Made by a program: the position numbers and the translations under genes
Part shown: positions 28,143 through 41,616 of the stretch, in pieces
Position numbering within the stretch: position 1 is the stretch's first letter
Layout: every line of letters starts with the position of its first letter
Source: a virus
Taxonomy: Duplodnaviria; Heunggongvirae; Uroviricota; Caudoviricetes
Reading direction: 5' to 3' (one strand)
DNA: 46,366 bases
IMG/VR virus record: IMGVR_UViG_2778261428_000001
The notes under the pieces: model-generated
The model's input: only the letters and a program-made list of their open reading frames with translations
What the model was told of the DNA's origin: nothing
Databases searched by the model: none

Positions 28143-28345
28143 ATTTTCACTTTTTTAAATCCAACGACAGACGGCTGGCATTTAAGTATTGTGAAATATT
28201 ATCAAATGTAATCATCATTGATTTACAAAAGATACATTTTGCCCCGAAAGGATTCATGTCAGAAACATCAAAAGATGATGTTCTATACTGGGAACCATGA
28301 CAACACGGGCATCTAAAGTGAATATGGTTTGTAATATTGTCTACC

Positions 28346-28558
28346 TCAAAGCGCCACTACATGAACAGCGGCAGGACCTTTAGGTCCGTTCTCAATACCA
28401 AATTCAACTTCCTGATTCTCAGTTAATGTTTTGAAATCGTTGCTCTGAATTGCTGAGAAATGGACAAACACATCTTTGCTGCCATCTTTCGGCGTGATGA
28501 AACCAAAACCTTTTTCAGGGTTAAACCATTTCACTAAACCAGTCATTTTGTTAGACAT
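28346..28558 (-). CDS. cspI: Cold shock protein CspI (CspA family)
   Basis: 70 aa, [38 protein letters not shown]... with RNP1/RNP2 motifs; recalled match to CspI. Confidence 0.9.
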
Positions 28559-28921
28559 AATTATTACCTTTTGAAGAAATTAGCCCTTGGGCAGAATGGT
28601 CCGAAAAAAAAATATCAGAGAGAAAAACCAACAAGGAAATCTCAAGAGGTACAAATAATAAAATTATAACAATGACTGCTTCAGATAAATTTGTAACAAA
28701 CCAGAACACCATTAACGCATGATTAACCACCCATAGCAAGGATTACTTTTGTAAAGAAAAACACAGCAATGAAAGAATAGCTTTATTTATTAATAAAACG
28801 TGTCATTCTGATTAAGACCTTTTATCTTACCCTTAAGATTTCAGGAATTTTGGCTCATGGAAGAGTCCTTTTTATTTAAATTTTACATTCCGCGATGTAA
28901 ATGTTCCGATTTAATATTACC

Positions 28922-30949: not shown

Positions 30950-31230
30950 GAGATTGTGGTGCTTTTTGTGGGAGTCATCCACTTACGCACTTTGTTTTGC
31001 GATGCCAGCAGTTAGCTTCTGCTGTGAAACTATTCATGCAGCAAACCTGCACTTCACCACAATGGTTAGCATACTTTTCCTGATTAAGATTTTGCCAAAT
31101 ATGCTGGCCATTGTTTCATGTATTGGACCTCCTTACTTTTTATTAAAGAGATCCAATATTCACTACTCTGTCCGTATCTCTACTCAGGCATCAGCCTTCT
31201 TCGTTATCGTATACAGACGAGCGATGAATT

Positions 31231-31446
31231 TTAATCAGTAATGATGACATTTGCTGCTGCAGGACCTTTAGCACCACTCTCTATAGAGAAGGTAACCTTT
31301 TGACCTTCAAATAAGGTTCGATAATTATCATTCTGAATCGCAGAAAAATGCACAAACACATCTTTACTACCATCAACAGGAGAAATAAAGCCGAAACCTT
31401 TATCAGCGTTAAACCATTTTACTAAACCAGTCATTTTATTTGACAT
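31231..31446 (-). CDS. cspB: Cold shock protein (CspA family), CspB-like
   Basis: 71 aa, [38 protein letters not shown]...; position next to cspF remnant and Q as in Qin. Confidence 0.8.
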
Positions 31447-31756
31447 TCTACATTCCTTAACTTGAGCCTTTCGGCATAAATGGTTTGCATAACAGAAACG
31501 ACTTCGTACTTAATTGGAGAGACTCAAAGAAGGAATAAGTGAATAACACCTGAAATGAGAACTGCTTTAGTAAACTACTTCGTATATCGTCTGTTCTTCA
31601 AACCGACGCAGTCATTAACTCATAGTTGAACATATGAAGCAATGTTTATTTTAGACATCCAGCCACCTTCAACCCTATCAAAAAAGTAGTTTTCTCCAGG
31701 AACGTGTGTATGGTGCACCAGGTTATCAGTATTAAGGAGTTTTTCTGTCCCCTAAA

Positions 31757-34535: not shown

Positions 34536-34652
34536 CAGAATCCTTCCGGATAATTAGCTCTCCCCTTTAAGGGACCATCCCTCTTATCCCTGCGCGCTAC
34601 TTAAGTATTTTTGATTCTATTCCGGCACCGTCCAGAACTTCAAACGCGTTGA

Positions 34653-34683
34653 AAATAAAAACAAAAACCCGCCGAAGCGGGTT
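34653..34683 (-). terminator. Rho-independent terminator of hok mRNA
   Basis: Minus-strand transcript reads AACCCGCTTCGGCGGGTT followed by TTTGTTTTTATTTT. Confidence 0.6.
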
Positions 34684-34751
34684 AAGTGCGGGTGCGTTGA
34701 GGATGCCTGCCACATCAGAGGTGGCGAGGGATTTCTCCCTCGCCGGGTCTC

Positions 34752-34907
34752 TTACTCCTCAGGTTCGTAAGCTGTGAAGACAGCGACCTCCGTCTGGCCG
34801 GTTCGGATTCGTACCTCGCAGAGGTCTTTCCTCGTTACCAGTGCCGTCACTATGACGGTTAAACAGATGACGATCAGGGCGATTAACATCGCCTTTTGCT
34901 GCTTCAT
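34752..34907 (-). CDS. hokD: Hok-family membrane toxin (type I toxin)
   Basis: 51-aa product MKQQKAMLIALIVICLTVIVTALVTRKDLCEVRIRTGQTEVAVFTAYEPEE; the longer overlapping frame upstream is consistent with a mok-like leader ORF. Confidence 0.85.
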   Translation of the reverse strand: MKQQKAMLIALIVICLTVIVTALVTRKDLCEVRIRTGQTEVAVFTAYEPEE

Positions 34908-35535
34908 AGCCTGCTTCTCCTTGCCTTCCGGCACGTAAGAGGCTAACCTACATGTGTCTAGCATGAAATTGGCCTCAGATTAATGTTAAGCGTCTTGCCG
35001 GACGCGTAATGTTAACTGGGGCTTTTCTCTATCTGCCTTTGGTGTTCATGCCTGAGGCAGATAGCCTCAAGCACCCGCAGCAATTCTACTTAACTCACGT
35101 CACCTCGCCAATATAAAATCAATCAGAAAGGCGATCCGTAAGAACAACAGCAAGGCAATAAATTGCCATTACAGCCGCAATAGCTAGCGCACATTTGAGA
35201 ACCAGCACGACAACCTCCTGTATTGGACGTACACCAGTCCTGATGAATATGAGGCTGTCTCGTCAGTGATTCAATACAACTATTGGGTATAGTTTCTCTG
35301 ATTTTTTCTGTGGAAATGGGGCTCAACCACTAGTCACCACCAGCACTTCTTTTAATACGCAAAGTCCGACACAAGCTAACCTTCTAGTCCGCTTTGAGCG
35401 AGGAGCGGAAGTTTATAGACATTTCTTGCACTGCGTTGTCTAATCAATTAGGAGCTGGTAACGTGCCCTGAGTAAATAAGCCCGCATATACGGGCGCTAT
35501 GTACGCTCTGTTTTGTATGGTGCAAAGTGCCCCGT

Positions 35536-37350
35536 CTATCTGAAACGCTCAAACAGTGCAACCATTCCTTCAGGAGCGATATCTCTGACCTGGGCTCCTT
35601 GCCGCTCAACCCACTTACCAGCTATATGTGAAGGGGTATCCTGACCTAAAATTTCGAAGACGAAAACCGTCTTATCGAAGTATCGAACGCATTTAAGATG
35701 AGTGTTTATGTAGGACTTAAGCGGTTCTGAAAGTCCTGAGCGTCCTACCCGATCAGAGATGTCTTGGAACATCTGGTCAAGGTTCTTTCCAGCGTGGTTC
35801 GCTTCGTGATCAACACCAGTTATATGGAAGCCGTTATAAGATAAAGCCTTGCTTCCGAAAATCTCCTGAACTCTTGTTGCAGTATGCGCATTTTCAGCAA
35901 CCCCTACAAGAACATAGCCCTTGTGTCCTCTGCCGATATTAGCAATAGCAGCGCAGGTCTCCATAATTTTTTCGAAGGAGCGTTCATCAAAGGAAGGTGA
36001 TGGGTCTAAAGTATAGAAACCTTGTTTAAAATCGTAGGCCGCCTGCTCAGTTATTGAGTTAGTGAGTAAATTTTGGAGCTTCGTGATCCAATGAACTTTT
36101 GCAGGATCTGGATTTTGATCGTTTTCAAAAAAGCCCTGAATCCAACCAATTATTGAATCGACCATTCTACTCCGGTTGTCAGCCCCCCATCTCCCTCCAT
36201 CTTGAACCTGAATATTCCTACCGCAATCTTTCAGCCGCCCAATGAGGCCCGCACTATCTGAAACCACCATACCCCTTTTAATTATCAGGTCATGCATGGC
36301 GAGAAAGACCACCTGAAAGTAACGGGGGACTGGATTACCACCATTTCCGTTAGGAAAAATCAAACCAGAGAATGTCGTTTGAGCCTGACTAAGAAGTAGG
36401 ATTATCGCATCATGTACTCTTTGATAATCAAGATCGACTAGCTCCCCGGTTCTCTTTTTAATAGCTTGATCAATCGCTTCGAATCTTGCTTTGCTGGCTA
36501 AAGCTTCCGGGGATATTGCTCCATAGTAGTCATCTAGAAGCTCTGTACGCGAGGCCAGAGGTTTGTCAGAAACCATATAAGCAAGAATGTCCGCCACTAT
36601 CTCTTCATCCCGGCTCTGTCTTAACTGCTCCTTCGTCAATATTCCGTTAACAATCCAGAAGACGCTATCGGCACTAATGCCGTAGTCTAAATCCTTGTTC
36701 GTGATGCTAATTTTTTTCATCTCGCTTAAGAGCAAGAGATCCGCGTTAGATGTGTCACCACGAACTCTTGCGGAGATCTTCCGAACACATTCCGCAAACA
36801 CATTTGTAGCACCTGCTGCACGCAACTCCTGTCGTGAGAGCTGACGTCCACCTGAGTTAATTCGCCTGAACACTTCCTCAACTGAGTCTCTCTCGGCTGC
36901 TTCATAAATTGAAAGCGGGACAGGATATGATGCTATTGCAAGACACTGGCTTCGATCAAGGAGTGGCATCTTCTGATCAATGACTCCGCGATCTAATAGG
37001 TCTTTCGTCGTCGCGAACGTATTTAAATCAAAGTAGAATCCATTAAATGAAAAATCGTTCGAGATAAAAGACATGATGGCATTCATACGCTGCATCCCAT
37101 CAATAATCTCGAGAGTGCCGTCTTTTCTCCCAAGAGGTTCTGCTAACAAAATGATAGGTATCGGGAATCCCTTGATTATCGAGTCAATAAAATTTTGTTT
37201 TTCCTCAATAGTCCAAATCAATTTACGTTGATACTGTCGATTCACAACGTATTTTTTATCCTGATAGTTGATAAACACTCGCTCAACTTGTTCGCCACGA
37301 ACTATTAGTTCTTGTTGTAACGTTGCCATTATGTTGCCGTCCTGAGCCAT
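35536..37350 (-). CDS. DUF262 (ParB/GmrS-like) domain protein with probable Schlafen/AlbA_2-like C-terminal domain; candidate anti-phage defence or type IV restriction-like enzyme
   Basis: 604 aa; N-terminal DUF262 signature (NRQYQRKLIWTIEEKQNFIDSIIKGFPIPIILL ... LEIIDGMQRMNAI); C-terminal segment resembling AlbA_2 core (ANIGRGHKGYVLVGVAENAH); bounded by AT-rich tracts (37351..37765 and 34965..35535). Confidence 0.7.
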   Translation of the reverse strand: MAQDGNIMATLQQELIVRGEQVERVFINYQDKKYVVNRQYQRKLIWTIEEKQNFIDSIIKGFPIPIILLAEPLGRKDGTLEIIDGMQRMNAIMSFISNDFSFNGFYFDLNTFATTKDLLDRGVIDQKMPLLDRSQCLAIASYPVPLSIYEAAERDSVEEVFRRINSGGRQLSRQELRAAGATNVFAECVRKISARVRGDTSNADLLLLSEMKKISITNKDLDYGISADSVFWIVNGILTKEQLRQSRDEEIVADILAYMVSDKPLASRTELLDDYYGAISPEALASKARFEAIDQAIKKRTGELVDLDYQRVHDAIILLLSQAQTTFSGLIFPNGNGGNPVPRYFQVVFLAMHDLIIKRGMVVSDSAGLIGRLKDCGRNIQVQDGGRWGADNRSRMVDSIIGWIQGFFENDQNPDPAKVHWITKLQNLLTNSITEQAAYDFKQGFYTLDPSPSFDERSFEKIMETCAAIANIGRGHKGYVLVGVAENAHTATRVQEIFGSKALSYNGFHITGVDHEANHAGKNLDQMFQDISDRVGRSGLSEPLKSYINTHLKCVRYFDKTVFVFEILGQDTPSHIAGKWVERQGAQVRDIAPEGMVALFERFR

Positions 37351-37765
37351 TTATAGAGATATAACGATTAGGCAAAACCTGCCCTACATCACACGTACGT
37401 ATCATAATAATTGAAAAGTCATAAAAATAAATATTCTTCTACAGCATCGCCCGGCATACTTCAAATGCACAAAAATAAAACACTATAAATCAATATCTTA
37501 TGGAATTATTTTTGTAAAGGTGAATTGAACTTGTTACTCACTAAATTCTCCTGAATTTATGTTTTTTTTGCTAATGGACAATAATGTTGAACTGTAGATA
37601 TTTGTTTTAATTGGAATTAATTTTCAGAAAATGCTCGTATCTATGACAGCTTTTGGCACAAAGCGGACAACCACGCCAGATCTACCCTGTGCCATGAAAA
37701 ATGAGAATGTCAATTCACTCCTGAACTAATGCTTTTTAATCTAGTAACGTCTAAAATACCTAACA

Positions 37766-38167
37766 TTATCCCTGATAAAATGCCAGTATGCGCTGCATAA
37801 CTTCACTCATCCGGCACTCGCGACAGATTATGTTTAGGCGACTGTCGTAGCGACGTATTTCTCCATCAGGTAACGACCAGATAAGGTCCGGATCAACCAC
37901 AGCTGTTTTCTTCACCTTTGCCCTCGAGAGTTTTTTGCGGGCGTTTTGCCAGTCCTTACGCGCCTGTTCAGACGGGAATAACCCGTAGCCGGAGTTGTAT
38001 ACATCGCCACTGGCTACCAGCTCTCTGGCAAGAACGCTCATCAGATATCTAGTCGCACCTGTTTTAGCTTCCAGTTGCCGTAACGTCTCACGACCGCTCT
38101 GGCGCACGAGTTCCACCACCTGCCCTTTAATTTTTTCCCGCTCTTCTTGTGTAAAAACTTTTGCCAC
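37766..38167 (-). CDS. Hypothetical protein (position of replication protein P or nin-region gene)
   Basis: 133-aa basic ORF downstream of the O-like gene; no family recognised. Confidence 0.35.
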   Translation of the reverse strand: MAKVFTQEEREKIKGQVVELVRQSGRETLRQLEAKTGATRYLMSVLARELVASGDVYNSGYGLFPSEQARKDWQNARKKLSRAKVKKTAVVDPDLIWSLPDGEIRRYDSRLNIICRECRMSEVMQRILAFYQG

Positions 38168-41557: not shown

Positions 41558-41616
41558 TTTTCTGGTGACGTTTGGCGGTATCAGTTTTACTCCGTGACTG
41601 CTCTGCCGCCCTTTTT
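41558..41616 (+). ncRNA. dicF: DicF small regulatory RNA (ftsZ-targeting Hfq-dependent sRNA)
   Basis: Sequence tttctggtgacgtttggcggtatcagttttactccgtgactgctctgccgcccttttt recalled as the DicF RNA, ending in its intrinsic terminator; located between ydfC-like and dicB as in Qin. Confidence 0.8.

Follow-up and report, generated by a model that had tools for sequence, protein, structure and literature searches.

A predicted hok/mok/sok control region and a probable 29-codon gene between hokD and a DUF262 gene in a Qin-like prophage

The window analysed here is the whole of a 46,366-nucleotide stretch of viral DNA (IMG/VR record IMGVR_UViG_2778261428_000001), an Escherichia coli Qin-like lambdoid prophage that is 100% identical to strain GMF065 over positions 34640-35560. 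We focused on the 570 bp (34965-35535) that separate the toxin gene hokD and its overlapping mok frame from a DUF262 gene. Read along the minus strand, in the early-rightward direction of the prophage, the genes follow the order replication O, Ren-like DUF977 gene, DUF262/GmrSD_N, hokD, rem, ydfU and Q-type antiterminator. A preliminary description, made from the letters alone, had taken the tract for an AT-rich, non-coding interval in which relBE had been replaced. Its GC content of 0.461, compared to 0.484 for the whole window, does not bear out the first of these terms, and the tract turned out to be a dense set of small elements, mostly known biology together with one modestly interesting small gene. 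Reading outwards from hokD, we consider it likely that the tract comprises a hok/sok control region, an independent cassette carrying a short open reading frame (sORF) of 29 codons, a conserved block and the tail of the DUF262 gene.

Control region of hokD

The hokD coding sequence (34752-34907, minus strand; 51 aa) lies just outside the tract that would regulate it. Found in the list of open reading frames (ORFs), its product matches Pfam family HOK_GEF (PF01848) with an E-value of 3e-23 and 81.6 bits against a cut-off of 22, and is identical to RefSeq HokD WP_000813254.1 of strain GMF065; the identical RefSeq loci also carry the hokD annotation. The mok frame (34752-34964, minus strand), taken from the ORF list and the sequence, has 70 codons and overlaps hokD. 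Its ATG at 34964 is preceded, at a distance of 8 nt, by a Shine-Dalgarno (SD) sequence, GAGG, at 34977-34974. The ATG is retained in all alleles, and the codons next to it are variable.

The covariance-model search for sok that had been proposed with the preliminary description gave a full-length match to Rfam RF01794 (“sok”; 118.8 bits, E=1.4e-26, model positions 1-157 of 157, gathering score 59) at 34902-35076 on the minus strand. As this model has the same sense as the hok mRNA and runs up to the hok AUG, the match marks the 5′ leader of that mRNA, with its tac stem-loop, Sok target, mok initiation region and hok SD. The hok leader, mok and sok elements that the description had expected in the interval are therefore present. 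Upstream of the leader, a promoter scan detected TTGGCG-17-TAGAAT at 35083-35111 (minus strand), which matches the consensus at 9 of 12 positions; across 80 IMG/VR loci its hexamers are constant and its spacer is variable. From this site we infer that the hok mRNA begins with GGGUGCUUGAGG at position 35076.

On the opposite strand, a Sok antisense RNA candidate extends from about 34956 to about 35031, as judged from its fold and from its complementarity to positions ~50-110 of the Rfam model. It has a single-stranded 5′ tail that lies over both the GAGG and the ATG of mok, followed by a long hairpin and a U-rich 3′ end, GGGGCUUUUCU. The predicted fold has an energy of -30.4 kcal/mol (z=-4.87), and none of 200 shuffled sequences was equally stable. 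A putative Sok promoter, TTGCCT-17-TAACCT, occupies 34921-34949 on the plus strand; it was picked out from the sequence, scoring too low for the consensus scan to list it, and its position matches that of the Sok promoter in plasmid R1.

At the other end of the transcript, a candidate fbi element, CCUCAACGCACCC, is found at 34690-34702 (minus strand), and a scan placed an intrinsic terminator, with a 7-bp stem followed by TTTGTTTTTA, at 34666-34683 on the same strand. In the minimum free energy (MFE) fold of the 422-nt hok mRNA (35076 to 34655), GGGUGCUUGAGG is joined to CCUCAACGCACCC, and the end-to-end duplex reaches -35.3 kcal/mol, these values being predictions rather than probing results. 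Such pairing between the 5′ tac and the 3′ fbi is typical of hok mRNAs. Weak Rfam matches over the hok 3′ end (isrK, rsmX and others) were below their thresholds and were taken as noise.

In the parts at 34902-35111, the cis-regulatory half of a type I toxin-antitoxin locus of the hok/mok/sok kind appears to be complete. All hallmarks of the hok/sok family are present at the sequence level. Whereas the anatomy was observed in the window itself, the regulatory logic is drawn from the hok/sok paradigm of plasmid R1. Transcription would start at ~35076 from TTGGCG-17-TAGAAT, and pairing of tac with fbi would hold the full-length hok mRNA inert. Translation of hokD would require translation of mok from the ATG at 34964, and a Sok RNA of ~75 nt, made from the opposite strand at ~34956-35031, would cover the mok ribosome-binding site.

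The locus shares its part list with hok/mok/sok (parB) of plasmid R1 and with the chromosomal hok loci of E. coli (Pedersen & Gerdes 1999; RF01794; PF01848): a Hok-family ORF, an overlapping mok, a leader of ~175 nt, tac-fbi pairing, an antisense hairpin over the mok ribosome-binding site and a terminator. Unlike the R1 system, the window holds a chromosomal prophage allele with an insertion in the Sok hairpin and a hypervariable Sok target. The insertion, cgcguccggcaagacgc, adds 16 nt at 34992-35009 relative to the RF01794 consensus and lengthens the stem of the Sok/leader hairpin. Sequence differences among hokD alleles are concentrated at 34940-34975, a hypervariable stretch with at least three haplotypes that takes in the 5′ tail of Sok, the Sok target and the first codons of mok; the adjoining leader is nearly invariant. 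This pattern suggests that recognition between Sok and hok has diversified in specificity among co-resident copies.

No RelE or RelB homologue was detected anywhere in the window by tblastn with the K-12 proteins as queries (E<=10; the best hit, at E=1.6, is noise), and the window ORF list contains no candidate relBE ORF pair. The absence of relBE, as first described, is thus confirmed, together with the difference in toxin-antitoxin content from K-12 Qin: relBE is missing, and an intact hok/mok/sok locus stands there. Alignment to K-12, which had been suggested as a check, demonstrated that the tract is not K-12 sequence. In a three-way alignment and by blastn, K-12 is 98.6% identical up to window position 34921, and homology breaks at 34921/34922, 14 nt upstream of the hokD ATG, where the K-12 side continues as the 3′ flank of relE. 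This breakpoint is further supported by the genome search, in which partial matches begin at query position 192.

Compared to the relB-relE-hokD (relBEF) arrangement of K-12 Qin, the hokD coding sequence, its 3′ untranslated region (UTR) and terminator, and the downstream rem, ydfU, ydfT and csp genes are alike. By contrast, relE and relB of K-12 stand where the window has everything upstream of 34921; K-12 hokD lacks a leader, mok start, Sok and promoter of its own, and the window lacks relBE. According to the literature, K-12 hokD is co-transcribed with relBE. Both forms are common: among 5,426 complete E. coli genomes, the relE-hokD junction was found in 1,165 and the sORF together with the intact hok leader in 1,652.

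A review (PMC6379469), citing Ramisetty & Santhosh 2016, states that integration of a plasmid-derived relBE cut an ancestral hokD (mok/hok) ORF of ~70 codons to 51. Since the literature has relBE integrating into an ancestral 70-codon hokD/mok locus, the arrangement in the window is ancestral and that of K-12 is derived, a point already made there. In our reading K-12 would have lost the leader module by that integration 14 nt upstream of hokD. The word “replaced” was accordingly wrong in its direction, relBE being the insertion in K-12. This part of the analysis only corrects a reference-genome bias, in that the K-12 relBEF operon is truncated and derived and many natural isolates retain the complete hokD/mok/sok locus, as the literature already holds.

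The 29-codon reading frame and its flanks

Upstream of the hok promoter, the minus strand carries a sORF of 29 codons (MLVLKCALAIAAVMAIYCLAVVLTDRLSD) at 35119-35208, with a GTG start, a TGA stop and one predicted transmembrane helix in its product. Its SD sequence, AGGAGG at 35214-35219 (minus strand), lies 5 nt upstream of the GTG. The interval had been described as holding no convincing ORF, apart from a Cys-rich frame of 67 aa; that longer frame, which overlaps the sORF, is spurious, as 5 of the 11 homologues carry stop codons in it (L004, L005, L007, L012 and L019), whereas the 29-codon frame shows the substitution pattern of a coding sequence.

Comparison covered loci in which the sORF adjoins a DUF262 gene, RloB with an AAA ATPase, an FRG-domain protein, QueH, a methyltransferase or a hypothetical gene, in addition to E. 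albertii, E. ruysiae, one Shigella chromosome, four phage genomes and 80 IMG/VR contigs. The sORF is conserved in all 18 loci that hold it, the window included, which represent at least four classes of upstream sequence, and is intact in 80 of the 80 IMG/VR prophage loci. Over ~100 loci its length is constant at 29 codons without a single indel, whereas the flanks do carry indels; the sole exception in length is an allele extended by two residues through a changed stop codon. Prophage copies start with GTG and the copy on the Shigella virulence plasmid pINV with ATG, and the SD (AGGAGG, AGGAGA, GGGGG or GGGAGG) is kept in all upstream classes.

Variable columns are distributed as 10/4/16 over the three codon positions, being enriched at the third. 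The ratio of non-synonymous to synonymous polymorphism (pN/pS) is 0.29 in frame; read in the two alternative frames, the sequences give 0.57 and 1.45. Moreover, of the 19 differences between the window and pINV alleles, 11 are synonymous and 8 non-synonymous (binomial p=0.003). Without translation, the third-position bias and a pN/pS that depends on the frame would be difficult to account for, and the sORF is probably a real, translated gene for a small membrane peptide.

The sORF occurs in about 1,900 of the 5,426 complete E. coli genomes, among them BL21 and REL606, and in these ~1,900 genomes the ~300 bp past the hok promoter are conserved irrespective of the upstream gene. RefSeq annotates nothing between hokD and the upstream gene in 40 sampled genomes, and in GenBank the frame is labelled only “membrane protein”, by occasional submitters, or “hypothetical protein”. 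Searches for distant homologues, in which a 42-aa database member served as the protein query, found no relatives outside Escherichia and Shigella. Literature searches by the peptide string and by icsP together with hok returned nothing relevant.

The sORF is also found without hok, in three loci (L004, L009 and L015) and on pINV; in the first three it is followed by a convergent TehB/DUF1971 gene. On pINV (pWR501, L012 1601-1800), the peptide is 79% identical, and the frame has an ATG start, the same promoter hexamers and SD, and is followed by the hok promoter. The differences are that the cassette lies ~290 bp upstream of icsP instead of in a prophage, and that the hok leader has decayed past its first hairpin, with neither a hok gene nor an Rfam sok match. 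About 140 pINV-type plasmids have this sORF/icsP arrangement.

In the loci that hold only one of the two modules, copies of the hok leader without the sORF begin their homology at ~35095, in the spacer of the hok promoter, and sORF loci without hok lose homology ~20 nt past the sORF stop, near 35099. The stretch around 35095 looks like a recurrent recombination junction between the hok and sORF modules.

A candidate sORF promoter, TTGAAT-17-CATATT, was placed at 35246-35274 (minus strand), with a predicted transcription start at ~35240. In the form TTGA(A/G)(T/G)-17-CATATT, it keeps a fixed distance to the start codon in the seven scanned loci, which cover four upstream classes, although the 17-nt spacer has diverged; it is the only promoter-like site with a fixed position across the scanned classes. 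The segment 35119-35274 would accordingly form an independent mini-cassette of a weak sigma-70 promoter, a strong SD and the 29-codon ORF. As no terminator precedes the hok promoter, the sORF transcript probably continues into the hok leader.

Two kinds of promoter variant were observed. In 10 of the IMG/VR loci (L020-L099), at 70-54 nt upstream of the sORF start, the -35 hexamer TTGAAT is replaced by TCTCAT, which yields a perfect, operator-like 8-bp inverted repeat, TCTCATCA-A-TGATGAGA. In C41(DE3) of the BL21 lineage (L006, 1204-1613), a deletion joins the 3′ end of the DUF977 gene to the SD region of the sORF, so that the sORF promoter is gone and the ORF and an intact hokD leader are retained. 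With both of these kept, BL21-lineage strains are convenient experimental carriers.

Further upstream, the class A alleles share a non-coding block at 35275-35413, which would be a conserved element of its own; its boundary of conservation falls at 35401-35413 in about 800 genomes. Inside it, a divergent promoter-like site, GTGATT-16-TATAGT, has its -10 hexamer at 35289-35294 (plus strand). Conserved RNA structure over 35290-35420 was not significant on either strand (z of -1.26 and +0.42). The 8-mer GTGCTGGT at the sORF start (35201-35208) recurs 138 nt upstream, at 35339-35346, and a plus-strand transcript of the block would complement the start-codon region through it. As a pairing element this repeat was rejected, being restricted to class A alleles and probably due to chance.

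Nature of the peptide and rival readings

The predicted peptide has 29 aa and a grand average of hydropathy (GRAVY) of 1.72, and its 18-residue core has a mean hydropathy of 2.74. It is probably a single-pass inner-membrane peptide with its N-terminus inside, and searches of Pfam, NCBIfam, PHROGs and PADLOC gave no match to it. We compared it to the small type I toxins Ibs, TisB, ShoB, ZorO and DinQ and to the small membrane proteins MgtS, KdpF and PmrR, which are likewise small and possess one transmembrane helix and a short charged tail. Like these comparators, the sORF is unannotated, is carried on a mobile element and lies beside a type I locus. It differs from the enterobacterial small toxins and membrane proteins in showing no similarity to a library family, in that no cognate antisense RNA was found, and in its strong and apparently accessible SD. 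Our best guess is that the sORF is a “moron”, a prophage gene whose small membrane peptide is made in the lysogen, and not a demonstrated toxin; literature searches turned up no experimental data on toxicity of the peptide.

Resemblance to type I toxins in size, GRAVY and charged C-terminal tail, together with its position on a prophage next to a type I locus, would also suit the toxin of a second, unrecognised type I module in tandem with hokD, controlled by an antisense or divergent small RNA (sRNA) or by pairing of the SD with the 3′ end of the toxin mRNA itself. For the first kind of control, the divergent TATAGT site lies 85 nt upstream of the sORF, though only in class A and pINV alleles, and no antisense promoter is conserved in all classes. 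The divergent RNA pairs with the sORF mRNA at the level of shuffled controls in six prophage alleles (z of -1.1 to +0.8); pINV alone reaches -2.9, with its best duplex in a different region. Moreover, the upstream block has no conserved RNA structure, and an Rfam scan for an antisense or divergent partner of the sORF matched no known sRNA. For the second kind, CAGGAGGU is predicted to form a helix in the mRNA with CCUUUCUG, an invariant sequence at the end of the ORF, and standard pairs make up 93.9% of the cells of that helix. However, this SD-sequestering helix shows no compensatory changes and does not exceed shuffles (93.1% compared to 92.7%), and the SD is strong and open. Given these results and the lack of database matches, we regard a second toxin as doubtful.

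The individual mechanisms that we tried were rejected in turn. Sok acting on the sORF mRNA gave a duplex energy equal to, and no better than, the shuffled mean; a divergent sRNA from the upstream block showed no excess of pairing over shuffles in the six prophage alleles; SD sequestration by the 3′ end of the ORF and an internal hairpin both fit the alleles but lack compensatory changes and do no better than shuffles; and a candidate antisense promoter within the sORF or 3′ of it is confined to alleles with TAAAAT and is thus not universal.

A related proposal holds that the hotspot-flanking hokD module has a functional partner in the 29-aa peptide, which would be either a new family of membrane-active toxin or a small membrane modulator contributing to prophage retention, superinfection exclusion or abortive infection, and which pINV would have kept by itself after the loss of hok. 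We put it forward tentatively, as an unlikely case. If true, an unrecognised, expressed micro-gene with a phenotype would be present in ~1/3 of E. coli genomes and on most Shigella virulence plasmids.

The conservation could instead reflect an untranslated RNA or DNA element, for instance a linker for recombination at the edge of the cargo hotspot, or a longer 5′ end on an alternative hok transcript. The region does lie at a mosaic junction, where hok-only and sORF-only loci break within the spacer of the hok promoter, and for a stable internal hairpin, GGCAA/UUGCC, pairing is preserved in 97.6% of cells. This structure shows no covariation, however, and an untranslated element would not easily account for the third-position bias, the frame-specific pN/pS, the absence of indels in the frame as opposed to its flanks, or the swap between GTG and ATG with the SD retained; this explanation therefore appears quite improbable. 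It is very unlikely, moreover, that the interval is in essence a non-coding AT-rich spacer at the site where relBE was replaced, with only hok/sok leader elements and a terminator in it. relBE is indeed absent, the leader elements are there and RefSeq leaves the interval blank in the genomes sampled, but the GC content is close to that of the window, a 29-codon ORF with coding constraint and an SD is present, the polarity of the event is the reverse, and ~300 bp beyond the hok promoter are conserved regardless of the neighbouring gene.

Finally, the superficial resemblance of YCLAVVL to ICLTVIV and the adjacency of the two genes might point to a truncated Hok paralogue, namely the N-terminal transmembrane half left by a tandem hok duplication. 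Pfam HOK_GEF gave no match to the peptide at E<=1, and a hidden Markov model (HMM) built on seven Hok sequences scored it at 0.1 bit, a value equalled or exceeded by 1,050 of 2,000 shuffled peptides. These two results effectively refute a Hok origin, which we hold to be extremely improbable.

Several observations nevertheless weigh against the combination of an intact hok/sok control region with an independent sORF gene. Some lineages have lost all or part of the sORF: its 5′ half is deleted in one locus (L011), and matches in ST131 and O157 strains begin only at query position 136-147. The family is limited to Escherichia and Shigella at >=76% identity, so that little divergence has accumulated and few substitutions are available to the selection tests. 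The candidate sORF promoter agrees with the consensus at only 8 of 12 positions and was not listed by the consensus scan, and its -35 hexamer is lost in E. albertii (L019) and in 10 of the 80 IMG/VR loci. On the hok side, the Sok promoter and RNA ends were assigned by position, after plasmid R1, rather than measured. Furthermore, the literature reports that the chromosomal hokA, hokB and hokC loci did not confer post-segregational killing when tested; with three other chromosomal loci behaving in this way, “intact” does not equal “active”.

The new item here is only the unannotated 29-codon gene, and on present evidence it is not a new kind of system. It offers a cheap and well-defined candidate for small-protein studies, and is relevant to anyone dissecting the regulation of hokD or the upstream region of icsP. 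In addition, it marks the fixed right-hand edge of a prophage hotspot whose defence-type cargo varies between strains.

DUF262 cargo and prophage context

A cargo hotspot separates the sORF from the Ren-like DUF977 gene (35414-38167 in the window, and the corresponding slots of L002, L004, L005, L007, L008 and L010), and is occupied in different strains by DUF262/GmrSD_N, RloB with an AAA ATPase, an FRG-domain protein, QueH, methyltransferases or hypothetical genes. In the window it holds the 604-aa DUF262/GmrSD_N protein (35536-37350, minus strand), the N-domain of which resembles PADLOC NsnA and PD-T4-2_A. The remainder of the tract, 35414-35535, would be the 3′ tail of this strain-specific, GmrSD-like cargo with its terminator hairpin.

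The stem-loop reported earlier after the DUF262 stop codon exists, although not at 35487-35505, which better fits a plus-strand hairpin at 35492-35508. The best candidate on the minus strand lies to the left, at 35480-35495, 40 nt past the stop codon, and consists of GCCCGUAUAUGCGGGC followed by UUAUUUACU. It has a 6-bp stem with five GC pairs, then UUAUUUAC (5 U in 8), and folds at -13.9 kcal/mol (z=-2.23). This hairpin occurs only in loci with the DUF262 gene and belongs to that cargo, not to the conserved block. It is a plausible terminator of the DUF262 gene, with a weak U-tract.

A truly AT-rich spacer does exist in the window, at 37351-37765 upstream of the DUF262/GmrSD-like gene, with a GC content of 0.318 (minimum 0.27), as is typical of horizontally acquired cargo. 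Elsewhere, Rfam identified two cspA-type thermoregulator 5′ UTRs, belonging to prophage csp paralogues, and the sRNA DicF (28319-28705, 31215-31607 and 41560-41611), all of which are expected in a Qin-like element.

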